Virus genome (UHGV): UHGV-1362809
Strand: one strand, 5' to 3'
DNA length: 64,000 bases
Origin: a virus
A program made the position numbers and the translations under genes. A model generated the notes under the pieces. It was not told the DNA's origin, ran no database searches, and worked only from the letters and a program-made list of their open reading frames with translations. Shown here in pieces: positions 45,803 through 63,923 of the stretch; the first letter of the stretch is position 1; each line of letters begins with the position of its first letter.

Positions 45803-46326
45803 TATATAGTCTCTGGTTTAGACGCTAATTTTAATACTTCTACTAAGCTTTTAATAGCCCATGATGCTTGGTCAATATCATTTATAATCAAGTCACTTAT
45901 TTCTAATATAACATCTAACTGACTTGTAATTAACTCGGAATCATCTAAGACGGAGCAAATAGCACTGTCTCTTTCACTATTTGTTTTGTACGCACCAAGT
46001 TCTGCTCTATATTGTATTCTTAAATAATTTATTAAGGACTCTCTATATTGTTCAATACTTTGCTGAGTTCTATAACAAATCATTTTTATTTCTACGCATC
46101 TACTACGGTATGCTTGGTTTTGTATAAGAGCATCAACAATCTTAGATTGCGCATTATGTAAAACGTCCTTTTTAGTAAGTAGACGTATATTGCGAGTAGC
46201 ATGCATACGGTCTAGTTCTTCCATGTATTTAGACGTATCAATGGAAAAATCGCCTTCCGTTATTCTTCGGTTGAACTTTTTGACCTTTGGGTCTGCCGAC
46301 AACTTTTTAAGAATTATACTACCCAT
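45802..46326 (-). CDS. hypothetical protein
   Basis: 174-aa ORF. Confidence 0.35.
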   Translation of the reverse strand: MGSIILKKLSADPKVKKFNRRITEGDFSIDTSKYMEELDRMHATRNIRLLTKKDVLHNAQSKIVDALIQNQAYRSRCVEIKMICYRTQQSIEQYRESLINYLRIQYRAELGAYKTNSERDSAICSVLDDSELITSQLDVILEISDLIINDIDQASWAIKSLVEVLKLASKPETI

Positions 46327-47066
46327 TTATTCTTTCCTCCGCAATACCATAATAATCTTTGTTTATTTCAATACCTATGAATTTACGATTTAGGTTTTTG
46401 CAAGCTACTCCTGTACTTCCTGACCCCATAAAAGGATCTAACACAGTATCGCCTTTATTAGTCCATATATTAACGCATCTTTCCATTAATGCAACTGGCT
46501 TTTGTGTTGGGTGTTGTACACGTTCAGGACTCCAAGGCACTATGGGAGGTATGTCACTCCATACATTACTTAATGCTCTATACTTACATCCATTCTTTAT
46601 ACCCATTCCACCAGTCTTTTTAACTATATTGGACGGTATTTTATTATAAGTATAGGAGGTTTCCCTTTACAAACCATAGTAAGTCCTCTCTTGTACTTAC
46701 TAAATTCGTTTTGGCACCCCTGCCTTTTATTCTGTCATAGATAATCCAGTTTTTGAGGATAAACTTTTTGTTGGAATGTATAACATTGCACACGTTAGAC
46801 CATCCTTGGAATATAAGTAAATTTCCACAGGGCTTAAGTATCTTATAGAATAATTTATACAATGTACTCCAATCTAAACTTGTTTTATCCCAACTTTCAT
46901 TATTATAACCAATTTCATAAGGAGGATCTGTTATTATAGCGTCTACTTTAATACCCTGTTTTATTAAATACTTTAGTTTTGTTATACAATCCTCGTTGTA
47001 CAGGTTATTCTTCCTCATTTTCTTCCATCCACAACAAGACTTTAGACATATACAAATGATACTCAT
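46319..47066 (-). CDS. second beta-class DNA methyltransferase, also frameshifted between motif IV and motif I (ORFs 46644..47066 and 46319..46606)
   Basis: ITDPPYEIGY upstream, DPFMGSGSTGVACKNLNRKFIGIE downstream; paralogue of 1439..2235 (FIGIEL/FIGIEI, QKPVAL conserved); TAA stop then a frame change. Confidence 0.6.
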
Positions 47067-50381: not shown

Positions 50382-51914
50382 ATGACAGAAGTTATAAAGG
50401 GTAATTTAGTAGACCCTTCAAGTTTAGACGTTTCTAAACTAAATAGTGAAGCTTTGGTTGCTAACATACAAAGTTCAGGTGTGCCTCTTGGTGGCGGTAG
50501 TTTGGTTTCTGGTAGTTCTGTATACTGGGGTAAAAGTGGTAATTCCTTGTTAGTGGATACTCCTACTACTCTGCAAATTGTATATTCTATGGGAGTAAAA
50601 TGGTTAAAACCATTAGCTTCCTTTAGAGAGGACTTGGCACCTTTATACTATTACAACGTATACAAATCAGGTGATAAAAACTACGCCAATTTATCCGTTG
50701 GGGCTATATACAACATAACTACTTCTAAAGTCATAGACTTACAAACTGTACGAGCTAAGCTAAATACAAATGACCTATACATACAGGATATATACACCGT
50801 TGACATAAGTTCTTTATCTGGCTGCGGTTCAGATAGTACTATGGGAGACAGTATTATAGTTTATGTACAGTCTTTACCAAGTACAAAAGATTCTGTTGTA
50901 GATTTGAGTATTTCCCGCAAGTGTAATCTTAGAGACTTACCATATCAACATGGAGACTCTACTGCTGTTGAATATACAGGTGTGGATGGCATTATGAGTT
51001 ATGGTCTTAAGCTCGGTAGTTTGTCTACAACGTCTAACTTTGAAGTAGAATTAGACGTAGATACTTCTAAGAATTGTACTTTGTTTTCGAGTGATAATCT
51101 TATACGTCTTGAGATAAAAAATGGAAAAATTACTGGTGTGATTGGCGGTCACAATACTGTTAATAATGCCACAGCAATAGATACCATTTATATCAATACA
51201 GAAAACTATGGTGGATCAGCACAGTATTTTACTGTTGATGCAGACTTAAATGGAAAGCGTACTTATAAATGGGTTAGTTCTCCCATTCAGGAGAACCATA
51301 CAGTATCTCGTTGGCAAGTAAAACGTGTTTCTGATAATAAACTATTTTGGACAGATACAGAAAAATCAAGTACCGCAACGGATGATAAGGTTCCTGAAGG
51401 TTGTACTATATATGAAGACGTTTATACTTATACTGTGTGCTGTACGGCAAAAGCAGACCAGTTTGTTTATGTCTCTCCTGCAGTCCAAGGTGAGATAACA
51501 TATACAGTTCAAAATCACATTTATTGTTATAATGGTCAGCAACAGTTATTTGATATAAGTTTCAAATTACATAGACCCTTAGTGTGCGACATATATTGTC
51601 TTAACAGCACCTACAAAATTGGTGACTCCCATAATGTTGTGCTGGTAAATGCTTCTAATAATGGAATATCCTTACCAGAATTTTGGACATTGTACGACGT
51701 GCCTGAACAAAAAAAGTTATTGAATGACGGCACTTATTTGGTGTTAGCTGACAATATTACGACAACAAATTATATAATAGTTGCTAAATCTGATTGTAAG
51801 AGAGATCCTGATGGTCTGTGGGTAAATGGTGTTGTTAGTTCCAAAATAATTGTTGGTTCCTTTGACGTTGTAGCTAATGCTATTGTAAGTGCCTTTAAAT
51901 ATAGTCAGGTGTAA
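50382..51914 (+). CDS. hypothetical protein, possibly virion/tail-associated
   Basis: 510 aa, Ser/Thr/Gly/Val-rich, lies just upstream of the sigma factor and tail-fibre genes. Confidence 0.35.
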   Translation: MTEVIKGNLVDPSSLDVSKLNSEALVANIQSSGVPLGGGSLVSGSSVYWGKSGNSLLVDTPTTLQIVYSMGVKWLKPLASFREDLAPLYYYNVYKSGDKNYANLSVGAIYNITTSKVIDLQTVRAKLNTNDLYIQDIYTVDISSLSGCGSDSTMGDSIIVYVQSLPSTKDSVVDLSISRKCNLRDLPYQHGDSTAVEYTGVDGIMSYGLKLGSLSTTSNFEVELDVDTSKNCTLFSSDNLIRLEIKNGKITGVIGGHNTVNNATAIDTIYINTENYGGSAQYFTVDADLNGKRTYKWVSSPIQENHTVSRWQVKRVSDNKLFWTDTEKSSTATDDKVPEGCTIYEDVYTYTVCCTAKADQFVYVSPAVQGEITYTVQNHIYCYNGQQQLFDISFKLHRPLVCDIYCLNSTYKIGDSHNVVLVNASNNGISLPEFWTLYDVPEQKKLLNDGTYLVLADNITTTNYIIVAKSDCKRDPDGLWVNGVVSSKIIVGSFDVVANAIVSAFKYSQV

Positions 51915-51916
51915 TT

Positions 51917-52681
51917 ATGACTACTTACGTAGATAGACAGACTTTGCAAACTCAGCTAACAAATTTTGTGTTTCCTGACCTACTGCAAGGATCTATAAAA
52001 AGTATATTTGGAAGAATTAAAAATATTCCATCTCTTACAAAAGAGGACGCCAACTGGTTAATATCTATCAATAGTAAACAGTCTAGAGATTTGCTCGTTT
52101 ATTACAATGCTAGAATTTTGTATAGATGGGCATATAGTTTCTCTAAAGGTAATATACACTGGTTTAAAGATATTTTTACTGCGGGAATTTGTCATTTATT
52201 AGAACTAACGGAACGTTGGGACGTTTCTAAAGACTGTTCCTTTATTACATTTTTATACAACTATACATACACATCAGTAAGAATTAGCTTTTTGAAGGAA
52301 CTCAACGTTGTAAAGCCTTCAAATCAGTACTTGGTTGGTAACACTAATGCACAGCCTCCTTCATATAAGGACTTTTCTCATACTAATCCAATGGTGCAAT
52401 ATGATATGGAAAGATATATTGATTATAGGCGTGCAAAGGGCAGAATAAGAGATTTTATTAGTACCCTTCCTACTAGACATAGAAACATACTTACTGACTA
52501 CTTTAACGGGCTATCCTGTGCTGAAATTTCTCGGAACCTTAATGTTTCCCGACAAGCAGTACATGCTATTATTACCAAATACAAGAATAAATTAAAAAAA
52601 GAGGTTGTAAATGTCAAACAACTTAAATCCAAAAATAATGAAACCTGTTCCTGCAACAGAAGAGAGTATGCAGCAGGTTAA
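51917..52681 (+). CDS. sigma-70-family sigma factor
   Basis: Region-4 HTH LPTRHRNILTDYFNGLSCAEISRNLNVSRQAVHAIITKYKNKL; region-2-like FKDIFTAGICHLLELTERWD. Confidence 0.5.
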   Translation: MTTYVDRQTLQTQLTNFVFPDLLQGSIKSIFGRIKNIPSLTKEDANWLISINSKQSRDLLVYYNARILYRWAYSFSKGNIHWFKDIFTAGICHLLELTERWDVSKDCSFITFLYNYTYTSVRISFLKELNVVKPSNQYLVGNTNAQPPSYKDFSHTNPMVQYDMERYIDYRRAKGRIRDFISTLPTRHRNILTDYFNGLSCAEISRNLNVSRQAVHAIITKYKNKLKKEVVNVKQLKSKNNETCSCNRREYAAG

Positions 52682-53300
52682 AGACACACTTCAAACCAAG
52701 GCTAATGCTTCTGATGTAGTAGACCTTACTTCTGAACAAACTATTAGCGGTTTGAAGACTTTTAATGCAAACGTTACTTTAAGCGGTACGAATGTCACCC
52801 GTACATCTACCTTAGCTGACGATGATAATAGTACTGAAATACCAACGACTGCTTGGGTAACTAAAAAAGTTAGTTCTGGCGGTAGTACTCTTCCCGATAA
52901 TATACAGTGTAAATCCTTAGAAGCTACTGAATGGCAATCTGACCTTACGTCTATTGCCTTCGCAGGTAACTTGGTTTATACTGGGGACGCAGGAAACGGT
53001 AGTCTTGGTACTTTTACCATCAATAGAATAGAATCAAAAGGCGGTTATTTTAGGTTTAATAATGGGGAATTAGCCTTGGGTGGTGTTAGCAGTGAAGTGT
53101 TTTTAGCTTCTACACAGTCTCAAGCTGATGGTTTGCCCAGAGTTAATGCCAACTGTAAAATGTATTGTTCAGAAACACCTTCCGTGACAGATAATTCCAC
53201 GCAGGTTGTTAATACTGCATACATAAACAATAAATTTAAAGCCGTTTCTGTTGAACCCGCTGAAAAAGAAGAAGGTGTGTTTTATTTTGTCAGAGAGTAA
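52611..53300 (+). CDS. tail fibre protein (conserved N-terminal tail-fibre motif)
   Basis: DLTSEQTISGLKTFNANVTLSG ... IPTTAWVTKKV is typical of phage tail-fibre N-termini; the real start is probably M at 52668 (MQQVKD). Confidence 0.5.
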   Translation: MSNNLNPKIMKPVPATEESMQQVKDTLQTKANASDVVDLTSEQTISGLKTFNANVTLSGTNVTRTSTLADDDNSTEIPTTAWVTKKVSSGGSTLPDNIQCKSLEATEWQSDLTSIAFAGNLVYTGDAGNGSLGTFTINRIESKGGYFRFNNGELALGGVSSEVFLASTQSQADGLPRVNANCKMYCSETPSVTDNSTQVVNTAYINNKFKAVSVEPAEKEEGVFYFVRE

Positions 53301-53317
53301 TTAATGTGAGGAAATAA

Positions 53318-53794
53318 ATGAAATATAAATACAATCAAGTAATAGAATATCAGGACTGCACTCTCGATAAAAATTTTGAGGAAGCATGTTCTTGGGCTCG
53401 GTCTAACGGTACGTCTTTCGAGGAGGACATTGACGCCCGTGTTCGGGTAGAAAAAGAATTTATGGACGAGTTTGGTAATAAATCTACCAAAAAAGTGTTG
53501 ATGCGCTATTTTAAAATCGGTTCCAAGCCTGTTGTATATGTTGAAACTGAAGAAGAAATAATAGCTCGTAAACAGTCCCGAGTTCGTCAGATAAGAGACC
53601 AGTATTTGAATGACTGCCAGGATAGAGTAGACCGCTTCCGCAACCAAAATGATGCTGGTATTACCACTACTGATTCTACTGATACATTTAAACATTTGTT
53701 AGAATATATGGAAGTTTTACGCAACTTCCCACAACAGCCTAACTGGTGGGAAGCTAATCCTTTGACTTTTGAAGAATACACAAAAACTGAATAA
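53318..53794 (+). CDS. hypothetical protein (downstream of tail fibre)
   Basis: 158-aa ORF. Confidence 0.4.
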   Translation: MKYKYNQVIEYQDCTLDKNFEEACSWARSNGTSFEEDIDARVRVEKEFMDEFGNKSTKKVLMRYFKIGSKPVVYVETEEEIIARKQSRVRQIRDQYLNDCQDRVDRFRNQNDAGITTTDSTDTFKHLLEYMEVLRNFPQQPNWWEANPLTFEEYTKTE

Positions 53795-54270
53795 ATCAAA
53801 TACATCCTTTTTTAAACCCAAGGTGAAGTATAAAGGAATATAAAAATATGGGTATATTGCTAAGACCAGTATTGCAAAGTGAGGACATACATAAATACCC
53901 TACTACTGCTACTACTGATATTACTGGTACAATATGCCAAAATTTTACTAAAAATATACCCGCAGACCAATACACACTACAGCATAATTTGTGTTCGCAC
54001 ATATTTAGATACTATTATACTGATAATTCGCTAGATACAAACTGGCTTATTTTTGGTTGGTATTTTTAGGAGATGTATAATTACTTTGGGTTAGATATAT
54101 TGGTATGAAATATATTGGTATTTGAGATATATGGGTATTTTGTAGAGTATTGTGGTAGTATTATAGCAACATATACGCTGGAATATATTTACAAATAAGG
54201 TTAAGTTAGGGGTATATACATATAATAGGGTGTACAAAGGGCGCAGTGATTTAAGTGGTATATTCAGATA

Positions 54271-54412
54271 ATACTGTCATACTGTCATATTGGCATATTG
54301 GCATACTGTCATATTGGCATATTGGCGTACTGTAATACTAATACTGTAATACTGATATATGGTCTATTACTGATATACTGGCATACTGGCATACTGGCAT
54401 ATTGGCATATTG
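54271..54412. repeat. about 18 tandem copies of an 8-bp unit A(C/T)TG(G/T)CAT
   Basis: ACTGTCAT / ATTGGCAT / ACTGGCAT units, read directly. Confidence 0.8.
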
Positions 54413-54780
54413 ATTATATTTTCGCTATGTTCCTCATCATTTTATTCCTTATTATATTCCGGAAAATTAATTACCTAATTACCTTAAATTATACCCATAT
54501 AATAAAAAGATATACCTAAATATGTCGATATACTCCACACACCGAATACTATAGCGAGTTATACAAAATAGAGTGTGTACATAAATAGATTATTACCCTA
54601 TATGTATGGACTAATCGAGTAAATCGGGTTGTATGTTAGCTATTATATGTATGATGTATATTAGAACATTTTGACGTATATTGGATATATTGATATGCGT
54701 AAATACTTGGAACAAACAACGTCTGGTTTATTCGGCATATTATACAGCTGCATATTTATGATATATTTGTGATACTGTTA

Positions 54781-54850
54781 GAATGTAAGAATGTATGAAT
54801 ATATGTATGAATAAGCGAATATACGAATATATGTATGAATAAATGTCTAA
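54781..54850. repeat. imperfect direct repeats of GAATATATGTATGAATAA
   Basis: Read directly. Confidence 0.6.
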
Positions 54851-54885
54851 ATACCAAACGTATTAAGATACGCCAATACTAAACA

Positions 54886-55052
54886 AATATATGTCAAAAT
54901 ATATGCTAAAATATGCCAAAATATATGCTAAAATATGTCAAAATATATGCTAAAATATGCCAAAATATATGCTAAAATATGTCAAAATATATGCTAAAAT
55001 ATGCCAAAATATATGCTAAAATATGTCAAAATATGCTAAAATATGTCAAAAT
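54886..55052. repeat. about 7.5 tandem copies of a 22-bp unit ATATGCTAAAATATG(C/T)CAAAAT, alternating C/T variants
   Basis: Read directly. Confidence 0.85.
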
Positions 55053-55080
55053 GACACACAAAATCGCACGTTGTTACGTT

Positions 55081-55215
55081 GACCCCCCCCCCTACCCAGA
55101 AATACCCAGAATATGCTGGATACAGTAGGTATGGAGATATGAGACTTATAGGCGTACACGGTGGACACAGGGGGATATGGGGGATACAGTAGGTATGGGG
55201 GATATGGAAGGTATG
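55081..55215. repeat. C10 homopolymer followed by repeated GATACAGTAGGTATGGxGATATG / GGGGGATATGG units
   Basis: Read directly. Confidence 0.7.
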
Positions 55216-55526
55216 GTTAAACTTCCTACCAGATGCTGGAGTTTGGTATAAATATCCATATAAACACCGATATAAATGCCCATATTTAGTAGAGATGCCC
55301 ATATAAATGCCAATATTAGGGTATAAGCGATAGAACTTGCGTTAAAATCTATAATTTTATGGTATATATGGTATGTATACGGTAGACATGTGAGAATATG
55401 CCGTATATGTAGAGTGTATGGTTGTGTGGGGATATGTAGAATATATAAGGTAAATATATGTTAAGAATTCTGCAAAATATACTGCAAAGTATTTCTAAAT
55501 TTATTAAATTCTTACAGGAGAAAATA

Positions 55527-56264
55527 ATGCCAATTTTTAATATTTCCAAGGTTGGATCCGTTAATAGTGGATCCGACGTAATTTCCAAGGTGTACGCTGG
55601 ATCAGATTTGGTGTACAGTGCAGTACAGCCAAATGGTTATTTGTTTAGAGATCTTGACGATACAACAGGTACTTTGAGTGCAGCTACTGGTGAACTGGAA
55701 GATGCATCGGAGATTACTGAAATACCAGATCATGGTTTGTATTATGGTTTTTATGAATGTACTGGTCTTACTGGTAGTGTTTCATTTCCTAATTTAACAA
55801 GTGTGGCAGATTATGGTATGAATTATGGTTTTTATGGATGTACTGGTCTTACTGGTAGTGTATCATTTCCTAGCCTTACAAGTATAGAAAGTAATGGTAT
55901 GGAGTATTGCTTTTATAGATGTACTGGTCTAACTGGTAGTGTATCATTTCCTAATTTAACAAGTGTAGCATTTATTGGTTTGAGTAGTTGTTTTAAAGGT
56001 TGCACAGGTTTAACTGGTAGTGTATCATTTCCTAGCCTTACAAGTATAGAAAGTAGAAGTATGATGCACTGTTTTATGGGTTGTACTGGTCTAACTGGTA
56101 GTGTATCATTTCCTAGCCTAACAAGTATAGGAGACTATGGTATGAATAATTGTTTTAGCAATACCAGTGTTACACAAGTACATTTTAAATCCTCCCTATC
56201 AGGAAATACACAGTGTACAGCTTCTAACCTTGGTATTACTGGTAATGTATATTTCGACCTTTAA
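55527..56264 (+). CDS. BspA-type leucine-rich-repeat protein
   Basis: Six tandem ~23-aa units CFxGCTGLTGSVSFP(S/N)LTSI. Start chosen at M24 of the ORF, after the AGGAG RBS. Confidence 0.55.
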   Translation: MPIFNISKVGSVNSGSDVISKVYAGSDLVYSAVQPNGYLFRDLDDTTGTLSAATGELEDASEITEIPDHGLYYGFYECTGLTGSVSFPNLTSVADYGMNYGFYGCTGLTGSVSFPSLTSIESNGMEYCFYRCTGLTGSVSFPNLTSVAFIGLSSCFKGCTGLTGSVSFPSLTSIESRSMMHCFMGCTGLTGSVSFPSLTSIGDYGMNNCFSNTSVTQVHFKSSLSGNTQCTASNLGITGNVYFDL

Positions 56265-56430
56265 CTTTAAATTCCTGTAAGCCTGCTTAACAGGTTTTTG
56301 TGAATCCATATATGAATTCTTGTAAATACCTGTTGCAAGTGGTGATTTGACTATATCCACTTAGCCTCTTAATCGAGTATCTAAACCGTTGTCAACTGTG
56401 CTTGCGGTTAGGTAAACAGGAGAATATATC

Positions 56431-57270
56431 ATGTATAATAGTATAGGCGCAGACCTTAACTTTATAGAGGAGATGGACTTGCTAAAGTCTGTTGGTAACA
56501 AGGAGATTGTTAAACAGGTAGTTGGTTCTAACTGTCCTTCAAACCCGTCCAAACCGTTTGTGCGAATGACTGCAGCTGGAAGAGAACACTTCAACAATTT
56601 TGTCCATAATCGTATCCTGAATAAGGACTATGCAACTATTAGTCAGCTGTTTGATTGTTTTCTCAACTGGTGTAAATGGACTAATTGCGATGTGTCCTTT
56701 AAGTGGTACGCAAGTAACTACGCCGCCAAGTACAAAGGTAAGTTTGGCGGTGTGTCTAAGGCTTTTTACAAGGCTTTTCATGCGGACATACTTGATAGCG
56801 ACTTGTTTTTGGAAGATGGTAAGGTGCTTAGTATACCCTCTACCAGTGATGGTAATTGGGTACGGTCAGGCGAGTTTGACACGGGAATGCATAACACGAA
56901 TAACATTTGTATAGCGTCCCGTAAATGTTATGACGTTACCAACTGGGAGTCCTTTAACACGATTGAGTCCTGCGGTACGGTATATGATCTAGAAGAACCT
57001 TACCACCTTACGATTGAACAACAGGACGATAGGTCGTTTGTTACCATTAGGCTTTTGACTCGAGAACCTTTAGATGTAGCCAAAATTGAAAAAGATGGCT
57101 TAGATATAAATAACTATAGTTGCAAGGTACGGTTGCTTGAATTTAGTCGTATAAAAGGCGACGTTCCCTGTTGGACGTTTGACGTGACTGAATGGGATGG
57201 ACATCCGATGACAGCTGTTGCCTTTGTGTCTAATGTGCGTTTTGACTTTGATACCGAGTATCGTTTGTGA
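56431..57270 (+). CDS. hypothetical protein
   Basis: 279-aa ORF. Confidence 0.4.
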   Translation: MYNSIGADLNFIEEMDLLKSVGNKEIVKQVVGSNCPSNPSKPFVRMTAAGREHFNNFVHNRILNKDYATISQLFDCFLNWCKWTNCDVSFKWYASNYAAKYKGKFGGVSKAFYKAFHADILDSDLFLEDGKVLSIPSTSDGNWVRSGEFDTGMHNTNNICIASRKCYDVTNWESFNTIESCGTVYDLEEPYHLTIEQQDDRSFVTIRLLTREPLDVAKIEKDGLDINNYSCKVRLLEFSRIKGDVPCWTFDVTEWDGHPMTAVAFVSNVRFDFDTEYRL

Positions 57271-57278
57271 GGCTTATA

Positions 57279-57529
57279 TGGATGATATTTCTGATATACT
57301 TAACCAGTATCACTATAGCATACCCTGTGCGGAGTTTAGTGTGCAGTTAGGCGACTCTACAATTAAGTGTGCTAAGGGTAAGGAGCATATTTCCCAGCAC
57401 GTTTATACAGGTGAGGACCAATTTGTTTGCCTTACTGGTGTGTCTCCCTCTATTAGGGTGAGGTACACGAGGCAAGCTTACAACGTACTCAGCTCTAAAG
57501 GCATCAAGCCCTTTGGTTTGGATCTGTAG
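57279..57529 (+). CDS. small hypothetical protein
   Basis: Start placed at MDDISD after the GAGG RBS, just past the upstream stop. Confidence 0.3.
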
Positions 57530-57567
57530 CATATACGCTAATATCTGTAGTACATACATTAATATAT

Positions 57568-57603
57568 AGGTGTGACTCTTTTGGGTCACACCTATTTTTT
57601 TGT
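57568..57603 (+). terminator. rho-independent terminator
   Basis: AGGTGTGACTCTTTTGGGTCACACCT hairpin followed by a T-run. Confidence 0.65.
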
Positions 57604-57632
57604 TTGACATTCCCATTTTGGTATGTTAGTAT
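57604..57632 (+). promoter_or_regulatory. sigma-70-like promoter TTGACA-N17-TAGTAT
   Basis: Perfect -35 hexamer, 17-bp spacer; AAGGAG RBS and ATG at 57674 downstream. Confidence 0.55.
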
Positions 57633-57673
57633 GCACAATTAAACAAAGGTCAACCCAACCAAAAGGAGAAACC

Positions 57674-57853
57674 ATGATTACCGAATACCAACGTGAAGCA
57701 CTCAAAGAGTGTCGTGAAAAAATTGCACATTTTAATCAGACATATCAGGACGGGTTAATCCCTACCGAGGAGTACCTTTGTAAAATGGCTAACCTGTGGT
57801 GGGACTATAACGAGGTGTTGCATACAATCGAACAGGAACCCGTAAACTCGTAA
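57674..57853 (+). CDS. small hypothetical protein (59 aa, MITEYQREALKECREKIAHF...)
   Basis: Start moved to M18 of the track ORF because the first ATG lies inside the -10 element; strong RBS. Confidence 0.4.
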   Translation: MITEYQREALKECREKIAHFNQTYQDGLIPTEEYLCKMANLWWDYNEVLHTIEQEPVNS

Positions 57854-57867
57854 TTTAGGAGGTATTT

Positions 57868-58122
57868 ATGTTTGTGATAATTGGTCAAGAGGTACTGATG
57901 TACGACGACCCGTCTAAAATTATGTTGGGTGCGTTAAAAGCACTGGCAGAAACCCAAGGTAAACCCTTCAAGTGTTTTTGTGCGGTGAACGATGGTAAGG
58001 ACGGGGTGATTGTTAGCCCGAATAATGATGAACCCAAATATTTTGCTTCCGAACAGGAGGCAGACAGGTACGCAAGAAACAAACAGTGTGACGTGTATTA
58101 CTGTAAAGCAGTACAGGTTTAA
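57868..58122 (+). CDS. small hypothetical protein
   Basis: 84 aa; GGAGG RBS. Confidence 0.4.
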   Translation: MFVIIGQEVLMYDDPSKIMLGALKALAETQGKPFKCFCAVNDGKDGVIVSPNNDEPKYFASEQEADRYARNKQCDVYYCKAVQV

Positions 58123-58130
58123 GTTTTTGT

Positions 58131-58161
58131 TTGACATTGATGTTTAGCTGTGTTATAGTAT
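58131..58161 (+). promoter_or_regulatory. sigma-70-like promoter TTGACA-N17-TATAGT with conserved leader ACGCATAATCAAA...CCAACCAAAAGGAGAAGTAGT
   Basis: Same promoter plus leader repeated at 63480-63561. Confidence 0.55.
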
Positions 58162-58214
58162 ACGCATAATCAAACGAACCCAAAGGGGTTTAACCAACCA
58201 AAAGGAGAAGTAGT

Positions 58215-58493
58215 ATGACTAAAAATTTCAAACGTGAAGAATACATTACCACGGTGTACGGTTACGGATGTCAGTTGTTCGTTGTATACAACAGTACCGC
58301 AGCCTGCAAGCTCGACGTTCACTCTGTGTTAGTTCAAGACGGTGACCGTTGTTTAACTTGGTCTAATCAGTATGACTTGCACGGGGTAGACTTTGACGAA
58401 GCGGTTACTAAAGCGGTGACCGACCACGTTAAACACTATAAACAAGGTGACGATTTACCTGTTCCTAATTGTGTGATTCGTAAGAGAGGGTAA
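58215..58493 (+). CDS. small hypothetical protein (MTKNFKREEY...)
   Basis: 92 aa, strong RBS. Confidence 0.45.
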   Translation: MTKNFKREEYITTVYGYGCQLFVVYNSTAACKLDVHSVLVQDGDRCLTWSNQYDLHGVDFDEAVTKAVTDHVKHYKQGDDLPVPNCVIRKRG

Positions 58494-58511
58494 TTTACCC
58501 TCTCTTTTTTG
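58483..58511 (+). terminator. rho-independent terminator
   Basis: AGAGAGGGTAATTTACCCTCTCT followed by TTTTTT. Confidence 0.6.
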
Positions 58512-58527
58512 TTATGGGAGAAGAGTT

Positions 58528-59151
58528 ATGTACGTTAGAACTAAAACAGGTGAGTTTGCTCTCGATTATGTGTGGTTTAGAAGCAAAGGGTTTAGCGATG
58601 AAATGAATATGTACTACTATGAAGCGATGCCCGACCTTCGTGAACGAGTGCTCAATTATTTCAAAGGGGTAGAGACCGTACCTTGTTTTCACGAGTATCA
58701 AGCAAAGAAGAAGGGAGACCTTTGGTGGTTTAAAAATGTTAGACCCTATGGGGGAGGTACTAATGTGGTGTTTGGTAAAGGTCTTATCAAATTTTTTAAG
58801 AGTCAGCCCGACGTTGAAGAAGTATATGTACCCATACCTTCCTACAATAATGGTAAGGGTTATTTAGATTACCTCTATGATGGTGAGTGGTTGGGATGCA
58901 AGGTTACAAAAAAGCAGTGGGATACCTATTGCGGGTGCATCGGTATGATACGTTTTCATCTCGCAACGCAGCACATAGACACAGATGACATTACCATTAA
59001 AGGTATGACTCTGCGACGTTATAACAAGCTGGTAGGTATGGTTGGTCCTATCACGTTTGTCAATAGTATAAAGAGTGCTAAATGTGCTAACAGAGAAAAG
59101 GTTACTTTGCGCAAGTTAGACATCGTGAATGGTAAAATTGTTGAGTTGTAA
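58528..59151 (+). CDS. hypothetical protein
   Basis: 207-aa ORF. Confidence 0.45.
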   Translation: MYVRTKTGEFALDYVWFRSKGFSDEMNMYYYEAMPDLRERVLNYFKGVETVPCFHEYQAKKKGDLWWFKNVRPYGGGTNVVFGKGLIKFFKSQPDVEEVYVPIPSYNNGKGYLDYLYDGEWLGCKVTKKQWDTYCGCIGMIRFHLATQHIDTDDITIKGMTLRRYNKLVGMVGPITFVNSIKSAKCANREKVTLRKLDIVNGKIVEL

Positions 59152-59160
59152 ATAATTTGT

Positions 59161-59191
59161 AGGGGTGACAATATTGTCACCTCTATTTTTT
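59161..59191 (+). terminator. rho-independent terminator
   Basis: AGGGGTGACAATATTGTCACCTCT followed by ATTTTTTGT. Confidence 0.6.
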
Positions 59192-59205
59192 GTTAGAGGT
59201 AATTT

Positions 59206-60576
59206 ATGACTCAAGATGTTGAAATTGTGTTTGAAGATTGTGATGAAGGTATCACCGACACAAAAAGAGCTTTTGATGACGTTGTTGAGCGACTTAATCG
59301 AGTGAGAGAAATTCTTAATAATCAAATTCTTGAAAGAAAGCAAGAAATTGATGGTATTTTGATTACAATTATGGCGGACTCCTCCTGCCTATTTTTAGGT
59401 GATCCGGGAACTGCAAAAACCCAGATGGTTAAGTATGCTTCTTATTTGTTTGGTCTTGTGTCGTTTGATATTTTACTTGGGGAGACCACCAAACCCGAAC
59501 AGGTATTTGGTCCCACAAATATACCAGCTTTAGCACAAGGTAAGCTGTATACTTCTACAAAAGGGTATGCACCAGAGTGTGAGGTGTTGTTTCTAGACGA
59601 AGTGTTCAAATCTAATGGTACGGTGCTTAACCCTCTGCTGTGGTTGATTAATGAAAAACAATATCGTAATGGGGATTTAGGCGTTATAGACTGCCCTATT
59701 AAGGCTGTGTTCGCTGCTTCTAACGAGTTACCCAACGATGATTCCTTGGGAGCATTTTTTGACCGTCTTGTTTTGAGATACGAGGTGCAACCTCTTAAAA
59801 GTGTGCAGAATATATCTAAGATGATTAACAATTTTCTGCACCACCCAGCTAAACCCCAGCCCATATTCAACACGCATTTGTTTGACGTTTTGAGAGGGTT
59901 TGTTAAGCAGGTAGTCATACCAGAGGAACTAATTACTACTTTGTACAATATCAAGTGTCAGCTAGAACGTGTACATAAGATTACTATTTCTGACCGTCGT
60001 CTAAACAAGTGCATACGATTGGTACAAGCACAAGCAGTTCTTAATGGTCGGCTTAAAGCAGAGCTTAGAGATTTTGAAATTTTGCAGCATTGTCTATGGG
60101 ATACTCCTGAAACTAAGTCTAAAATTCAGTCAACGGTAATGTCTTTTGTCAACACCAGTATTCCTCAGCTTATCGCCTATTCAGATATGTGTACTAATCT
60201 ATATAATACCGCATTTGAAACAGGTAATATGAAAAGGGCTCTTGCCAAGCTTAAAAAACTATATGCTAAGGTTAAACCTTATACTGGAGCTACAGCTGAG
60301 AATGTTGTCAATGACATCAAGTCTAAGTTTAGTAAGATCGCACAAGTATGTAAGCAACGTGAGCAGTTTGTGCTGTATCGAGTAAAAGCTGGTAGTAATG
60401 TCTACTACCAAGTTGACAACACAACTGCCTCTTTGTGGACGTATAAACAGATGAGAGCTTGTGAATTTAGACAACGACGTAAGGGTAATTACTGGTATTC
60501 TTCTGATAGTAAGGACGTTATTGCCTCCCGTATTTCTCAAACCTTGGGTGTGCAGGTAGTTATCAAGAAGCTTTGA
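59206..60576 (+). CDS. MoxR-family AAA+ ATPase
   Basis: Walker A FLGDPGTAKTQMV; Walker B VLFLDEVFK; MoxR-type NGTVLNPLLWLINEKQY. Confidence 0.6.
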   Translation: MTQDVEIVFEDCDEGITDTKRAFDDVVERLNRVREILNNQILERKQEIDGILITIMADSSCLFLGDPGTAKTQMVKYASYLFGLVSFDILLGETTKPEQVFGPTNIPALAQGKLYTSTKGYAPECEVLFLDEVFKSNGTVLNPLLWLINEKQYRNGDLGVIDCPIKAVFAASNELPNDDSLGAFFDRLVLRYEVQPLKSVQNISKMINNFLHHPAKPQPIFNTHLFDVLRGFVKQVVIPEELITTLYNIKCQLERVHKITISDRRLNKCIRLVQAQAVLNGRLKAELRDFEILQHCLWDTPETKSKIQSTVMSFVNTSIPQLIAYSDMCTNLYNTAFETGNMKRALAKLKKLYAKVKPYTGATAENVVNDIKSKFSKIAQVCKQREQFVLYRVKAGSNVYYQVDNTTASLWTYKQMRACEFRQRRKGNYWYSSDSKDVIASRISQTLGVQVVIKKL

Positions 60577-60625
60577 TATACTGGGTGAAGTATTCTCATT
60601 TAGTATAAGATACATAGAGGTAGGT

Positions 60626-62575
60626 ATGATTACACAACAGGACATTAAGCAAGCTTTACAGACGTTGACCTCTAAGTTCGAGGTTGACTTTACTAAGCTA
60701 CCAGTTATTGTGACAGACGACGTTGACATAGCCCGCACCGACTTTGAATACATCTATCTTAGTGATAAACTTAGAGCTAAAGACCTATCTACGGTTATAG
60801 CTCATGAAGTGATGCACTTTTTGACTGGTAGCGGGGAGTTAGACTATAAGTATGGATCTATCCAGTGTAATATTGCAGAGGACTTGATAATAAATCAGTG
60901 GTTGAAGCAGTATGGTTTAGACGTAACCAAGTTGAGTCGTAAAGGTTTGTTGGACTCTAAACCTTGGTCTCTTACTAAACGTCTTAGCAAATTACCTATT
61001 GTCAATCAGCCCTGCGTTAGTCGGTTAGTTCCTAACGAGCTGATGCGTTGTGCTATAGAAATTAGTCACAAAAAAAGGTTTAAGCATTATTCTTTGTTGC
61101 AGGATACTTTAATGGACGAGGTAGAGTTTGCTGAATCCTTGGTAAACACTGTATCCACTTCTTTACCGATAAATCTTTATGCTGTAATGCGGTTTTGGTT
61201 TGATTGGTTGTACAAGGAAGACCAAATTAATACTGATTATGTTCTAAACACAGAGTATGACTATTCGCATTTGATATGTTGGGGAGCTCCTAAATGGTCT
61301 CGTAAATTGTACGACGACCCTGCCTTAACTATAAGTTGCACAAGTATGTATCTCAGCAACGTAGCCTATCATACTGCATGGCTGGTAGACCGTAAGAGAA
61401 GGCTACAGAATAGTTTGTCCTCCTGTCAACGAAAAATTAGTGACCTAAAGCAACAAACTTATACAGCCAAGGTACGAAAGGATTTAAATAATGCTATTCG
61501 TAGAAAGAAATCCTTAAAATATCGTATCAAACATTTTGACACACGGGGAGCAGATTATTGGCTTACTAATACTTCTTTAATGGGCAGGTATTATAGTACT
61601 GCATATACTCCTACGCTCTTTCACAAGGTTAATACTCCTGATGATTGCATACCGTATAGTAAGTGTCCAACTCCTTTATATAAACAGCTGGGTTGGTGCC
61701 TAAGACAGGCAGTTAAGAATAACGAACTATGCGCCGACCTTTACAACAAGTTAGAAGAAATACTTGGTGAAATGAAGTGCGAACTAAAAAATGGTCAGCC
61801 TGATTTAAAGTACCAAAGAATTAGGTCTAAAATTGCTGACATTTTGACCATTAATAGACTGACTCATCTTATATCTAAAATTCTTAAATTAAAAGGTGGG
61901 TTTGATTCTACTCTTAAACTTAATAGAAGTAAACCATCGGATAATAGTTCCTCAAGTGTGGGCTATACTCTTGGTAGTGATATTTCTAATGCAGTTATAT
62001 CAGAGCTGGGATTACTTGCTAACGAATGTACAAAATTGGATTTTTTGGTAAAGTTGTCGCAGGGTAGCCTTTTTCAAGTAAGCAGTATGGTTAGTAAGAG
62101 ACTGCCTTTGATTATGTATATTGATACCAGTGGGAGTATGGGCTCCCAAGGTAGATTTAGTATGTGTATAGCCTATGCCTTGAGTATAGCTACTATTCTT
62201 AAAAAGGAGAAACGTGGAGTAGCTATTGTGTTGTTTGACGATTGTATTAGATATTCCAAAGTGATTGACGACAACTATAGCATGACGGATTTGTTAGACC
62301 TTATCTCTACCCAAACAAGCGGTGGTGGTACGAATTTTGAGCTAGCCTATAAAGAAGGTAAGCGCATACAACAGGAACAAGGTTGGGGAAATAGTATCCA
62401 CGTAGTAATGAGCGACGGTCAATTTGTAGTACCTGCTGAGAAACAACCAAACGACCAGCACTATGCCCTGTTATTTAAATCTTCTAATACTGACGCTGAT
62501 ATGCAGTCTTTCTTTGATAATGGGTGTTGGCAGTGTTCTTTGTCGAGTATTACCAAAATTACTCTTAAATTATAA
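60626..62575 (+). CDS. VWA-domain protein with N-terminal putative HExxH metallopeptidase domain (DUF2201-like partner of MoxR ATPases)
   Basis: N-terminal VIAHEVMHFLTG; C-terminal MIDAS LIMYIDTSGSMGS ... TSGGGTNF. Confidence 0.5.
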   Translation: MITQQDIKQALQTLTSKFEVDFTKLPVIVTDDVDIARTDFEYIYLSDKLRAKDLSTVIAHEVMHFLTGSGELDYKYGSIQCNIAEDLIINQWLKQYGLDVTKLSRKGLLDSKPWSLTKRLSKLPIVNQPCVSRLVPNELMRCAIEISHKKRFKHYSLLQDTLMDEVEFAESLVNTVSTSLPINLYAVMRFWFDWLYKEDQINTDYVLNTEYDYSHLICWGAPKWSRKLYDDPALTISCTSMYLSNVAYHTAWLVDRKRRLQNSLSSCQRKISDLKQQTYTAKVRKDLNNAIRRKKSLKYRIKHFDTRGADYWLTNTSLMGRYYSTAYTPTLFHKVNTPDDCIPYSKCPTPLYKQLGWCLRQAVKNNELCADLYNKLEEILGEMKCELKNGQPDLKYQRIRSKIADILTINRLTHLISKILKLKGGFDSTLKLNRSKPSDNSSSSVGYTLGSDISNAVISELGLLANECTKLDFLVKLSQGSLFQVSSMVSKRLPLIMYIDTSGSMGSQGRFSMCIAYALSIATILKKEKRGVAIVLFDDCIRYSKVIDDNYSMTDLLDLISTQTSGGGTNFELAYKEGKRIQQEQGWGNSIHVVMSDGQFVVPAEKQPNDQHYALLFKSSNTDADMQSFFDNGCWQCSLSSITKITLKL

Positions 62576-62635
62576 ACTTGACATTGCTCCTAAAATGTGA
62601 TACTATACAATTACACTTGAAAAAGGAGTACGACC

Positions 62636-63214
62636 ATGTACATACAAAACGAAGATTTACACCCGAATATATCAAAACAAGTCGGAGACGTATTTATGGA
62701 CGGGTATTTCGACCGTTATGTTATTACCGAATTAGACCACTTGTTGAAAGCCAATATATGCCACAATAGAGCGGGTCAAATCGTTAATTTCTCCGTCGAT
62801 TTACCTGTTGAGGCTAATTGGCTGACGAAAATTGCCCATTACGACAACGTGCAGGACGCTTTGGATAGTCCCCATTTTAAGATTGACCTAGATGTCGTAT
62901 TTTTACACAAAACCCTTGATCTCAACACGGGACGAATTACCTTTTTGTATTGCAATTATTGTGACAACGACTTTCAGTCTAAAAAGGGTATTCAGACTCC
63001 CGGCTTCATAACCCACCGATTGACTTATGCCCAAGGTAAGAACCTATGGGATTACCTTGAGTTTAGTGACGACCTGTTGTACTACACTCGCTACGGTACG
63101 GACCGAAACTTGCGGTTTGATAAATGGGATAAGCTGCAGGAAGAAATGGTTTTTCGTGCCTTACCAAAAGAAGAACGTTTGATTAAAATGTTGCAGAGTT
63201 TGAATGTAGCTTAA
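62636..63214 (+). CDS. hypothetical protein
   Basis: 192-aa ORF. Confidence 0.4.
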   Translation: MYIQNEDLHPNISKQVGDVFMDGYFDRYVITELDHLLKANICHNRAGQIVNFSVDLPVEANWLTKIAHYDNVQDALDSPHFKIDLDVVFLHKTLDLNTGRITFLYCNYCDNDFQSKKGIQTPGFITHRLTYAQGKNLWDYLEFSDDLLYYTRYGTDRNLRFDKWDKLQEEMVFRALPKEERLIKMLQSLNVA

Positions 63215-63226
63215 AGGAGACCTAAG

Positions 63227-63472
63227 ATGGTACACTACTTTATAAAATTTGAACCCGTTCCTGTAAAGGAGAGCGGTTACGTGGAAGGGTTTAACACCCG
63301 TACTTTGTCCTTAGACCCTTCTTATTCAGACAAGGTAGACTTTAGTACTACGCAAGTGATTAACTCCTCTAAGAATAGAGGCTTTGAAGTAGATAGAAAT
63401 ACCTTTTTCAAAGTGTTAGAAAATGCCCAACGGTATAATTCCGCATTGAGAGGGGTAAACATACTGCACTAA
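63227..63472 (+). CDS. small hypothetical protein
   Basis: 81 aa, GGAG RBS. Confidence 0.35.
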   Translation: MVHYFIKFEPVPVKESGYVEGFNTRTLSLDPSYSDKVDFSTTQVINSSKNRGFEVDRNTFFKVLENAQRYNSALRGVNILH

Positions 63473-63479
63473 AATATGT

Positions 63480-63510
63480 TTGACCTTGATGTTTAGCTGT
63501 GCTGTAGTAT
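63480..63510 (+). promoter_or_regulatory. sigma-70-like promoter (TTGACC ... TAGTAT) plus duplicated leader, paralogous to 58131-58214
   Basis: Near-identical ~85-bp promoter-leader-RBS copy, including the MTKN start. Confidence 0.5.
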
Positions 63511-63561
63511 ACGCATAATCAAAAACCCAAAGAGGTCTAACCAACCGAAAGGAGAAGTAGT

Positions 63562-63888: not shown

Positions 63889-63922
63889 GTGTGACTCTCT
63901 TGGGTCGCACCTATTTTTTTTT
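63887..63922 (+). terminator. rho-independent terminator, variant copy of the one at 57568
   Basis: AGGTGTGACTCTCTTGGGTCGCACCT followed by T9. Confidence 0.65.
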
Positions 63923-63923
63923 G

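Follow-up and report, generated by a model that had tools for sequence, protein, structure and literature searches.

At iteron origins such as lambda ori, P1 oriR/incA, the plasmid iterons and T4 oriE, the number and sequence of the iterons do not vary within a lineage, and known iterons lie in or beside the initiator gene. Phage pac sites are usually found in or beside terminase genes, and both the T7 genome, close to its ends, and the T5 repeat regions contain short repeat arrays. Plasmid sites of the parC/parS type are arrays bound cooperatively by small dimeric proteins, and bacterial contingency loci adjoin genes for surface proteins. Initiation can also leave VNTRs behind at an origin as a by-product, for example in mitochondrial control regions. 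To our knowledge, no phage genome has been described with at least four array families within 1.4 kb (the literature was not systematically searched).

The untranslated repeat regions within the left terminal repeat of T5 (Repeat Region 3, the injection stop signal) are gene-free stretches of 1.2-1.7 kb with many different direct repeats (10.1101/866236). A T5 repeat region holds nine copies of one unit and adjoins poorly conserved genes, and the T5 regions, which contain 131-bp inverted repeats, palindromes and eight paired DnaA boxes, are highly conserved in 25 relatives (10.1101/866236). Receptor-binding genes of Campylobacter phages have been described as carrying hypermutable polyG tracts (PMC10877375), and published accounts of mitochondrial control regions describe several VNTRs whose copy number varies within and between individuals (PMC13353940, PMC9494961).

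We analyzed a 64-kb stretch of DNA (the window), which is one contig end of an uncultivated human-gut jumbo phage of ~237 kb. Like the T5 regions, the tract at 54071-55450 is gene-free, dense in different direct repeats and situated by poorly conserved genes; unlike them, it is hypervariable, has neither a DnaA box nor a long inverted repeat, and has no evident terminal location. It shares with iteron origins direct repeats of about two helical turns beside an easily melted AT-rich stretch, but its repeat number ranges between 0 and 16 and it has no initiator next to it. As in VNTR and contingency loci, short-unit arrays and a homopolymer vary between near-identical genomes beside host-interaction genes, and perfect higher-order units indicate recent expansion; however, no array in the tract could be tied to a reading frame or promoter, and the nearest start is 0.5-1.25 kb away. 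The mitochondrial control region likewise concentrates several VNTRs in one non-coding region, but an origin and promoters are known there, whereas the tract is only a candidate for either role.

Repeat content and extent of the tract

JGI contig Ga0495776_003993 (237,166 bp) matches the window at 100% identity, and the same phage is present in two further assemblies. We retrieved the same locus from about 10 other assemblies or strains with flanking genes 98-99% identical (tract contigs compared: L007, L008, L011, L020, L022, L023, L024, L025, L026, L030 and L035), the sources being JGI, ENA SPAdes and MEGAHIT, and Logan assemblies of different samples. The closest sequenced relatives, PaBG, Lu11, phiRSL1 and NCTB, share only ~30% protein identity. 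Shine-Dalgarno usage in the phage points to a Firmicute as its host. No distant relative bearing the locus was found in IMG/VR, JGI metagenome contigs or GTDB genomes; protein searches returned only strains 96-99% identical and one 62% relative, a 5-kb contig that does not contain the locus. Searches by megablast and blastn found no similar DNA in 50,697 phage records, blastn against 72,556 plasmids gave a single chance-level match, and the 22-bp unit described below was not found in IMG/VR.

No credible gene lies between 54070 and 55527 of the window (~1.5 kb); the right end of the gene-free span is 55457 or 55527, depending on whether the downstream leucine-rich-repeat (LRR) gene is taken to start at 55458 or at 55528, where the ATG is preceded by AGGAG. 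The preliminary description had given a gene-free tract at 54071-55450, which agrees with our finding that no ORF on either strand is conserved among strains. A hidden gene was considered and rejected, since the ORFs of both strands are low-complexity and their frames differ among strains, and recoding of TAG, TGA or TAA stop codons opened no long ORF. At the left edge, a doubtful 73-aa ORF has no Pfam or PHROG match, and between the window and L011 it shows ~5 amino-acid replacements and two in-frame indels against ~1 synonymous change. The gene-free tract may therefore start at 53795, if this ORF is spurious. Within this ORF lie a 9-bp x3.4 repeat (53900-53930) and a single ATATGCCAAAAT motif (53932).

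TRF arrays scoring >=50 cover 36% of 54071-55450 compared with 1.4% of the remaining window. The 497 bases covered greatly exceed the mean of 6 and maximum of 90 obtained in 200 composition-matched simulations, indicating that array density is far beyond chance. The four tandem-repeat families named in the preliminary description were all found in the positions given there (Table 1). One of these, the 22-bp array, had been put at ~7.5 copies, the number that TRF also returned. It consists of 15 ATG(TC/CT/CC)AAAAT subunits (ATATGYYAAAAT) at a spacing of alternately 12 and 10 bp, with A4 tracts ~11 bp apart. Its self-identity is 95.4% at a lag of 22 and 100% at a lag of 44, bearing out the 44-bp higher-order unit that had been proposed; since this unit is perfect, the expansion is recent. 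The GAATATA... repeats placed at 54781-54850 correspond to the 28-bp unit, and the C10 tract and repeats placed at 55081-55215 correspond to the homopolymer and to GATACAGTAGGTATGG / GGGGGATATGG repeats at 55111-55216, to its right. For the 8-bp array, described as ~18 copies of A(C/T)TG(G/T)CAT, the array itself stood (17.4 copies at 54271-54409 by TRF), but matches are only 76% and the exact consensus occurs at only 10 sites. Good blocks (54271-54326 and 54376-54412) flank a degenerate middle that carries a 14-bp x2.1 repeat (54328-54357), and the array can likewise be scored as a 24-bp super-unit x5.9.

Arrays that had escaped the preliminary description are the 17-bp array, a 10-bp x1.9 array at 55093-55111, the 12-bp x3.2 array and the 9-bp x2.3 array. 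The pentamer ATATG is enriched 12-fold throughout the tract, and such tract-wide enrichment of short motifs is cryptic simplicity. The motifs show strand bias (GATAT 15 vs 1, ATATG 34 vs 15). In a nearest-neighbour free-energy scan, the least stable duplex ranked top at the 100-, 200- and 400-bp scales (z = 2.8).

Table 1. Features of the tract and its edges (window coordinates)
Feature	Coordinates	Strand	Basis and remarks
Doubtful 73-aa ORF	53848..54069	+	Called by gene callers in all assemblies
Terminator-like hairpin and T-run, GCTAGATACAAACTGGC TTATTTTTGG	54030..54056	+	Scan
17-bp array (A/G)ATATAT(T/G)GGTAT..	54093..54140	+	TRF, 2.9 copies
Conserved block	54134..54193	.	Four strains; minus-strand promoter-like TTGTAAAT at 54187-54194
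8-bp array TA(C/T)TG(G/T)CA	54271..54412	+	~17 units
Least stable duplex	54644..55043	.	400 bp, most AT-rich (20-30% GC); lowest stability in whole 64-kb window
28-bp unit GAATATACGAATATATGTATGAATAAGC	54789..54842	+	TRF, x1.9, 92% matches
22-bp array	54886..55052	+	TRF x7.5 (54889-55052), 93% matches, score 293
Conserved unique block CACACAAAATCGCACGTTGTTACGTTGA, directly left of C tract	55055..55082	+	Identical in window, L011, L023 and L035
Homopolymer C10	55083..55092	+	Sequence
G-rich repeat block	55093..55216	+	TACCCAGAAA x1.9, then ATATGSNGGATACAGTAGGTATGG x3 and GGGGGATATGG; families D7, D11
12-bp units CCATATAAA(Y)(R)C	55247..55317	+	~3.2 copies (TRF x3.2, 55247-55285); D8, D13, D14
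TATGGTATA x2.3 and GGGGATATGTAGAATAT repeats	55358..55457	+	Then conserved LRR-gene leader; TRF 9-bp x2.3 at 55358-55378
BspA-type LRR gene, downstream	55458..56264	+	Pfam LRR_5, 2.7e-11

Variation among strains and assemblies

Whole-unit indels occur in all arrays between strains whose flanking genes are 98-99% identical. The 17-bp array has 2.9 copies in the window, one in L011, two in L022 and L035, and three in L020 and L023. Units of the 8-bp array number 16 in the window, ~12 in L035 and ~4-8 in L011, L020, L022 and L023 by a loose motif (10, 6 and 2-3, respectively, by the exact motif), and the 28-bp repeat region is arranged otherwise in those last four strains. Exact matches to ATATGYYAAAAT fall from 16 in the window (15 in the 22-bp array plus one at 53932) to 5 in L023, 3 in L011 and 0 in L035, with at least 4 in L022. 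The C run is C10 in the window, C8 in L011 and L023 and C7 in L035, and the G-rich block is shorter in these three strains. Best conserved is the 12-bp array, with ~3 copies in all four of the four complete tracts. The copy-number heterogeneity predicted in the preliminary description was thus seen between strains, though it would be equally expected of functionless VNTRs.

Strains also carry private tandem duplications (20 bp x2.5 in L011, 11 bp x2.3 and 21 bp x2.2 in L023, 20 bp x2.0 in L035), which copy different local sequences unrelated to each other. An extra, self-promoted 83-aa gene is inserted within the 55358-55457 region in L011, and ~100 bp of tract backbone are replaced in L035; the tract tolerates such gross change.

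Nine assemblies break within or at arrays, at four different arrays. Of the further assemblies of the window phage, the BRIT16 scaffold has a 100-N gap inside the 22-bp array and the k119 contig ends there, its two ends overlapping inside the array, so that the genome assembles as a circle. Contigs L022 and L024 also terminate inside the 22-bp array and L025 inside the 17-bp array, L026 and L030 stop at the left edge of the 8-bp array, and L007 and L008 start just right of C10. For this reason, copy number as given in the window is unreliable, being assembler-dependent for the 22-bp array. Two contigs, of 207 and 235 kb, traverse the tract uninterrupted. Since contigs spanning the tract are biased to short-array strains and nine others break, long arrays may be the rule, not the exception, among strains.

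Among strains, the flanking genes show differences at 3.5-5.3% of their 4-fold sites and at 0.4-0.6% of codon positions 1+2, and the tract at 4.8-9.4% of its aligned, non-indel columns. The non-repeat backbone thus diverges at approximately the synonymous rate and is about neutral, and this comparison rejects purifying selection on the tract as a whole, although local conserved blocks exist. Substitutions are clustered, with invariant runs of 60, 43 and 38 nt, the longest of which was reached in <=0.25% of shuffles; some parts of the tract are therefore constrained. In addition to the blocks in Table 1, 54033-54070 is invariant in four strains. Gene-free DNA at 39317-40916 of the window shows only 1 change/1600 nt between strains, indicating that the non-coding DNA of this phage is not intrinsically fast-evolving. 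In all complete strains, a spacer of ~1.1-1.5 kb with the same motif families is held at the same place.

Flanking genes and regulatory signals

The 48 kb to the left of the tract form a replication/recombination module (DNA polymerase, helicase, SSB, UvsX-like protein and clamp loader), and 2 kb to the right begins a small-gene cluster whose promoters are strong and sigma-70-like. The genes upstream in the window encode topoisomerase IB, an ORFan, a sigma-like protein and a chimeric protein of the tail-fibre-assembly (Tfa-like) kind; besides these and the LRR protein, the neighbours by Pfam and PHROGs are MoxR, VWA and ORFans. An earlier placement of the tract between late genes therefore half holds, as tail-fibre and chaperone cassettes lie directly upstream in the sister strains. 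Fibre and Tfa cassettes differ in every strain, and the window strain is without 5.3 kb of cassettes, lost via recombination between two chaperone genes. A fibre-cassette ORF in the same phage lineage carries a frame-shifting poly-C (C8-C11) ~30 nt in, so that repeat-mediated switching does occur at the locus. We considered whether the poly-C region of the tract is a relic of the 5' end of a fibre gene; the contexts are alike (CGAC, then a C run), but there is no convincing nucleotide homology. The LRR gene has repeats of its own (81-bp x5.4 at 55722-56156 by TRF), and its product is 268, 244, 214, 212 or 191 aa long depending on the strain.

The hairpin at the left edge of the tract probably ends the upstream operon. 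An apparent phage promoter motif, TTGTAAAT, has 21 occurrences, co-oriented with genes. We found no promoter cluster in the tract, where this motif occurs once only, on the opposite strand; that copy is lost in L023 and L030 and so is not essential. Sigma-70-like sites in the tract are not enriched (15 found vs 20.9 expected), and no promoter could be placed beside or across any array or the C tract. A search for the DnaA box TTATCCACA with <=1 mismatch found no site in 51826-64000. Pfam and PHROGs scans of ORFs (small ORFs in part) found no initiator-type gene near the tract, and no terminase was found near it, the one weak partial match lying at 7252-8274, 46 kb away. We saw no partition, tubulin or actin-like gene in the window. 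No long inverted repeats were found in the tract (longest arms 31 nt, 77% complementary), Rfam gave no match except one at chance level (E 0.81), and a structured ncRNA was rejected because the conserved blocks fold no better than shuffles (z +1.0, +0.7). Nor is the tract a CRISPR array, as the units are head-to-tail without spacers.

Candidate roles of the tract

The explanation we favor, to which we would give an even chance, is that the tract is an almost unconstrained spacer at a host-range hotspot and that its arrays are slippage-made VNTRs, not conserved iterons. The tract is a non-coding, AT-rich spacer at the downstream edge of the most variable locus of the phage, and its arrays would have arisen in DNA with little or no constraint on sequence, through slippage during replication or through unequal recombination. 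Between near-identical strains the repeats vary in number or vanish, and hence look like slippage filler; the several-fold copy differences, the near absence of some arrays and the roughly neutral backbone all argue against conserved iterons. We infer that slippage is the process generating the arrays and that the arrays themselves lack a sequence-specific function. The few conserved pieces appear to be ordinary punctuation, namely the terminator at 54030-54056 and the LRR leader/promoter at ~55440-55527. Against an unconstrained spacer, the spacer and its motif families are retained in a densely coded genome, some parts are constrained as judged by the clustered substitutions, the least stable duplex lies beside helically phased A-tracts in a layout known from origins and pac sites, and nine breaks accompany a short-array bias among the crossing contigs. 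Since VNTRs can be a by-product of an origin, neutral arrays are also compatible with a functional site between them.

It is unlikely, in our judgment, that the tract is instead a functional control region tuned by repeat length, either an origin or a population-level rheostat for the fibre and LRR genes. The preliminary description had proposed the repeats as candidate iterons of an origin, pac series or terminus, a proposal that gained no positive support, as no initiator, convincing terminase or DnaA box is near. A replication origin, whose direct repeats would bind an initiator, with 54644-55043 as the unwinding element and variability tolerated or a by-product, is doubtful, though it is the strongest single competitor. 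The lowest-stability duplex of the window lies inside the tract, as a candidate AT-rich unwinding element adjoining the repeats, the fifteen subunits ~11 bp apart amount to phased A-tracts, the array motifs are nearly confined to the tract, the spacer is kept in all strains, and the replication/recombination module lies to the left. However, neither an adjacent initiator-like gene nor DnaA boxes are present, the tract lies among fibre/LRR genes, outside the replication module and at 6 kb from the strand switch, and the repeat number is not conserved as in fixed iterons, with 0-5 subunits in three strains. Gene-free DNA at 38.6-39.3 kb, inside the module, is at least as good a candidate, containing three 16-bp palindromes, exact or nearly so, and a duplex that ranks second in instability, and since UvsX-type recombination functions are encoded, a single fixed origin may be unneeded. 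We consider it less probable again that the tract is a contingency or "volume-control" locus, in which changes in repeat number and C-tract length would alter the spacing or the curvature ahead of the LRR gene, or beyond the end of the fibre operon, and so vary the expression of host-interaction genes within the phage population. Host-range-type genes on both flanks, copy-number polymorphism that includes a poly-C of C7 to C10 among strains, the frame-shifting poly-C (C8-C11) in neighbouring fibre-cassette ORFs of sister strains and variation of the LRR gene itself by 81-bp units are consistent with such tuning, but most arrays are 0.5-1.25 kb away from the LRR start, on its upstream side, no promoter could be located beside or across any of them or the C tract, and the inserted gene in L011 parts the arrays from the LRR gene.

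The chance that the tract is a pac signal or physical terminus, its repeats flanking a site where terminase recognizes or cuts the DNA or else a terminal-repeat edge, seems slim. The anatomy is like that of the 1.2-1.7-kb untranslated, repeat-dense T5 regions (10.1101/866236), the small-gene cluster with strong sigma-70-like promoters 2 kb to the right is typical of first-injected early regions, and the tract interrupts nine assemblies. These interruptions, however, are spread over four different arrays and share no single point, a pattern to be expected from repeats alone; assembly of the genome gives a circle (k119), the 207- and 235-kb contigs span the tract, the only terminase candidate is the weak match 46 kb off where a pac site would be expected beside its terminase, long inverted repeats and DnaA boxes are missing, and the T5 regions are highly conserved among relatives while the tract is not. 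We think it very improbable that the tract is a binding-site field for another DNA-binding protein (such as a centromere-like site for partition, an array that titrates the protein or acts as a decoy, or a nucleoprotein scaffold): the contiguous 8-bp and 10/12-bp units may resemble cooperatively bound arrays and the motifs have strong strand bias, but no partition, tubulin or actin-like gene accompanies them, copy numbers are not maintained, and the strain-private duplications hit unrelated sequences. That the arrays are mis-assembled low-complexity sequence is barely credible; the 22-bp array has a 100-N gap in one assembly and a contig end in another, yet identical units recur in independent assemblies (JGI, ENA SPAdes, MEGAHIT and Logan) from different samples.

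If the tract is a slippage-prone spacer, its importance is mainly practical: it would be a short-read assembly breakpoint for this phage lineage, and array copy numbers in database contigs would be untrustworthy. VNTR typing of the tract could tell strains of this rare gut jumbo phage apart at high resolution, and the tract marks the edge of a host-range hotspot where fibre cassettes, chaperone genes and the LRR gene are reshuffled. If one of the functional explanations is true, the tract, as origin or expression rheostat, would be the first cis-acting site of this uncultivated lineage, and a rheostat working together with the fibre poly-C would constitute a phage contingency locus that joins VNTRs, homopolymers and cassette exchange.

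Repeat families and coding potential of the tract

We read 53800-55800 directly and ran Tandem Repeats Finder (TRF) over the whole window. All four repeat families named in the preliminary description were present, along with several more, among them a 17-bp array, a 12-bp array and still smaller ones. The 8-bp array was also scored by TRF as a 24-bp super-unit in 5.9 copies. The 22-bp array consists of 15 ATG(TC/CT/CC)AAAAT subunits spaced alternately by 12 and 10 bp, and its self-identity is 100% at lag 44 vs. 95.4% at lag 22; the 44-bp higher-order unit proposed earlier is therefore real. Arrays scoring at least 50 covered 36% of 54071-55450 vs. 1.4% of the remaining window, and the 497 covered bases compare with a maximum of 90 in composition-matched simulations. 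A motif scan of the 64 kb found the repeat units almost confined to the tract. ATATG is pervasive across the tract at a 12-fold excess, which fits cryptic simplicity made by slippage. The least stable duplex of the window lay inside the tract at all three scales tested and is adjoined by A-tracts phased at ~11 bp, presumably curved DNA through A-tract bending.

The tract had been described as gene-free, and it is indeed non-coding. Its ORFs are short, of low complexity and not conserved in frame, with frames that differ from strain to strain; stop-codon reassignment opened no long frame, Rfam returned no match, and the conserved blocks fold no better than shuffles. Since a 73-aa ORF at the left edge is doubtful, the gene-free span is put at 1.46 to 1.73 kb. 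This ORF had no family match, and most of its differences from the counterpart in strain L011 are amino-acid replacements and repeat indels that keep the frame.

Coordinates of repeat arrays and other features (window positions unless a strain is named), with the assemblies that end or have gaps at each array
Feature	Position	Details	Assembly breaks
73-aa ORF	53848-54069	left edge of tract; doubtful	
17-bp array	54093-54140	x2.9 (TRF)	L025
8-bp array	54271-54409	17.4 copies, 76% matches (TRF)	L026, L030 (start of array)
28-bp array	54789-54842	x1.9 (TRF)	
22-bp (10/12-bp) array	54889-55052	x7.5, 93% matches, score 293 (TRF)	L022, L024, k119 contig, BRIT16 scaffold
C10 homopolymer	55083-55092		L007, L008 (just right of C tract)
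GATACAGTAGGTATGG / GGGGGATATGG repeats	55111-55216		
12-bp array	55247-55285	x3.2 (TRF)	
BspA-LRR gene repeat	55722-56156	81-bp x5.4 (162-bp x2.5)	
158-aa chimeric chaperone gene	53318-53794		
Sigma-like genes	21205-22119; 51917-52681		
16-bp palindrome TTGTTCTTTAGAACAA	38817-38832; 39052-39067; 39201-39216	three copies, 0-1 mismatch; AT-rich gene-free stretch in replication module	
G7 runs	38675-38699		
TTGTAAAT(A), minus-strand examples	753; 15903; 16863; 16927; 34697; 48097		
TTGTAAAT(A), plus-strand examples	50288; 52605; 56320; 59146		
TTGACA-N17-TATA(G/C)T promoters	57590-57625; 58131-58215; 62578-62636; 63478-63561; 63924-64000	before small genes	
Tail-fibre-cassette poly-C sites	L022 14825; L023 12923; L024 15026; L025 15026; L030 15022 and 15761	sister strains; cassette absent from window	

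Strain variation and reliability of the arrays

The window matches the final 64 kb of JGI contig Ga0495776_003993 (237,166 bp) at 100% identity, and the same phage occurs in two ENA assemblies (237,238 and 237,192 bp). Searches of IMG/VR, GTDB genomes and JGI metagenome contigs yielded no relatives of this rare lineage, and those of phage and plasmid collections no similar DNA. Exact-protein look-ups retrieved the locus from about ten other assemblies (L-numbered here). Complete tracts were available from the window, L011, L023 (207-kb contig) and L035 (235-kb contig), spanning 1707, 2175, 1461 and 1455 nt, respectively, between common anchors.

Every array differs between strains by whole units. 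The 17-bp array has three copies in the window, L020 and L023, two in L022 and L035, and one in L011; exact 8-bp motifs number 10 in the window (~17 copies by TRF), six in L035 and two to three in L011, L020, L022 and L023; ATATGYYAAAAT subunits number 16 in the window, five in L023, three in L011 and none in L035; and the poly-C run is C10 in the window, C8 in L011 and L023, and C7 in L035. Private tandem duplications of unrelated local sequence were also present in L011 (20 bp x2.5), L023 (11 bp x2.3 and 21 bp x2.2) and L035 (20 bp x2.0). In L011 the right part of the tract contains an additional 83-aa gene (L011 19700-20900; between window 55367 and 55456) with its own TTGACA-N17-TATATA promoter and AAGGAG ribosome-binding site, a moron-like insertion, and ~100 bp of tract backbone is replaced in L035.

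Divergence in aligned, non-indel columns of the tract was 4.8-9.4%, vs. 3.5-5.3% at 4-fold sites of flanking genes (0.4-0.6% at codon positions 1 and 2), so the tract overall is no better conserved than synonymous sites. Substitutions were clustered, leaving runs of 60, 43 and 38 nt invariant in the four strains, the longest of which was matched in at most 0.25% of shuffles. One of these runs corresponds to a terminator-like hairpin at the end of the upstream operon; in another, the promoter-like motif TTGTAAAT occurs on the minus strand, but two further strains have lost it.

Nine assemblies break off or are gapped precisely at arrays, so the contigs that cross the tract are biased toward short-array strains, and long arrays may be common in this lineage. 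In two of these nine, both of the window's own phage, the 22-bp array either carries a 100-N gap (BRIT16 scaffold) or contains both contig ends (k119 contig), which overlap by 65 nt, so that the genome assembles as a circle. Because two of the three assemblies of this phage thus failed to close the array, we infer an array of greater length or heterogeneity than the stated 7.5 copies, and the array copy number in the window is not secure.

Genomic neighbourhood

The left 48 kb of the window, on the minus strand, form a replication, recombination and nucleotide-modification module encoding DNA polymerase A, a helicase, SSB, UvsX-like and SbcC-like proteins, a clamp loader, exonucleases and QueC / GTP-cyclohydrolase-type enzymes. 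The jumbo phages PaBG, Lu11, NCTB and phiRSL1 encode counterparts ~30% identical to the polymerase and to a eukaryote-type topoisomerase IB. An N6/N4 DNA methyltransferase gene (46326-47066) is split by a 1-nt insertion in the window strain (GGGAAACCTCC vs. GGGAAACTCC) and intact, at 248 aa, in L011, L020 and L024. After a strand switch at ~48.08 kb come topoisomerase IB, a 510-aa ORFan, one of two sigma-like proteins, a 229-aa protein and a 158-aa tail-fibre-assembly-like protein; right of the tract lie a BspA-type LRR gene, a 279-aa gene, small genes with sigma-70-like promoters, and a MoxR ATPase and VWA protein. In L022 (9838-10561), the ORFan and the N-terminal portion of the sigma-like gene seem to be missing, with only a 186-aa product called directly after topoisomerase IB.

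Given this gene order, the immediate neighbours are not classic late genes, and the earlier placement of the tract between late genes holds only in that other strains carry tail-fibre-type cassettes directly upstream. In all other strains, 3.5-5.5 kb of strain-variable cassettes precede the tract, built of large ORFs each followed by a tail-fibre-assembly-type chaperone. The window strain is without them, having lost ~5.3 kb of fibre cassette, and its 158-aa protein is chimeric: the first and last chaperones meet at a shared NWWE motif, the N-terminus deriving from the sister strains' 169-aa gene and the final 13 residues from their 110-aa gene. Downstream, the LRR gene varies by 81-bp units, with products of 268, 244, 214, 212 and 191 aa across strains and samples. 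With variable cassettes on one side and a repeat-variable LRR gene on the other, the tract lies at the edge of a host-range hotspot.

The cassette ORFs begin MDEFIKS, and in several a poly-C run of 8, 9 or 11 replaces codons ~30 nt in, where paralogues have mixed proline/threonine codons. In six contigs from sister strains it throws a fibre-cassette ORF out of frame, and at none of the seven observed lengths does the ATG read into the long ORF downstream (in L023, C10 or C7 would put it back in frame). These runs probably confer phase-variable fibre expression.

A second gene-free stretch, at 39250-40950, is extremely conserved, with one substitution in 1600 nt vs. L020 (39317-40916) while flanking 4-fold sites differ by 5.3%. 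It contained no ORF in any genetic code tried and had no Rfam match. The minus strand, the likely one, folds better at 39250-40050 than all 20 shuffles (z = -3.2; plus strand, z = -1.5), making the stretch a candidate large structured RNA of no known family. The nearby TTGTTCTTTAGAACAA sites, equalled in number in 0 of 100 shuffles, look like operators or origin elements. Window-wide, TTGTAAAT(A) occurs 21 times vs. ~10 expected, almost always co-oriented with genes and often in upstream gaps, and probably represents the core of a phage-specific promoter (middle or late). Most TTGACA-N17-TATA(G/C)T promoters share a leader (ACGCATAATCAAA...CCAACCAAAAGGAGA), some after terminator hairpins, and the genes resemble an early cluster of the host-takeover type. 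Both the JGI and the BRIT16 contig stop in the gene that follows the last promoter copy, no more than ~110 bp beyond that copy.

Interpretation of the tract

Our best reading, to which we give about even odds, is of a spacer under almost no constraint at a host-range hotspot, its arrays being strain-specific VNTRs. The whole-unit differences, private duplications, inserted gene and replaced backbone point to a generally duplication-prone, weakly constrained spacer rather than to a maintained set of binding sites; another kind of binding-site field is highly improbable. That the arrays are an assembly artefact we consider barely credible. A replication origin is unlikely: an AT-rich stretch beside direct repeats is suggestive, but the neighbours include no initiator gene, the tract holds no DnaA boxes and lies outside the replication module, and its repeat number is not conserved. 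An origin could be placed at least as well in the gene-free region at 38.6-39.3 kb, which contains the second least stable duplex together with three 16-bp palindromes.

The frame-shifting poly-C tracts (C8-C11) of sister-strain cassettes would suit an expression rheostat, but no promoter could be linked to any array in the tract, and we regard such control as distinctly unlikely. For a terminus or pac site the chances are slim. In its anatomy the tract resembles the untranslated repeat regions within the T5 terminal repeat, but strong conservation and a layout based on inverted repeats and DnaA boxes mark those regions (10.1101/866236), and all of these hallmarks are missing here; moreover, assemblies break at four different arrays, not at one point, and two contigs of >200 kb run across the tract.

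Unless read-level data show an origin or terminus, the general interest of the tract is modest. As strain-specific VNTRs, the arrays make it a new example of an already known kind of sequence, useful for marking strains and as a caution in assembly.
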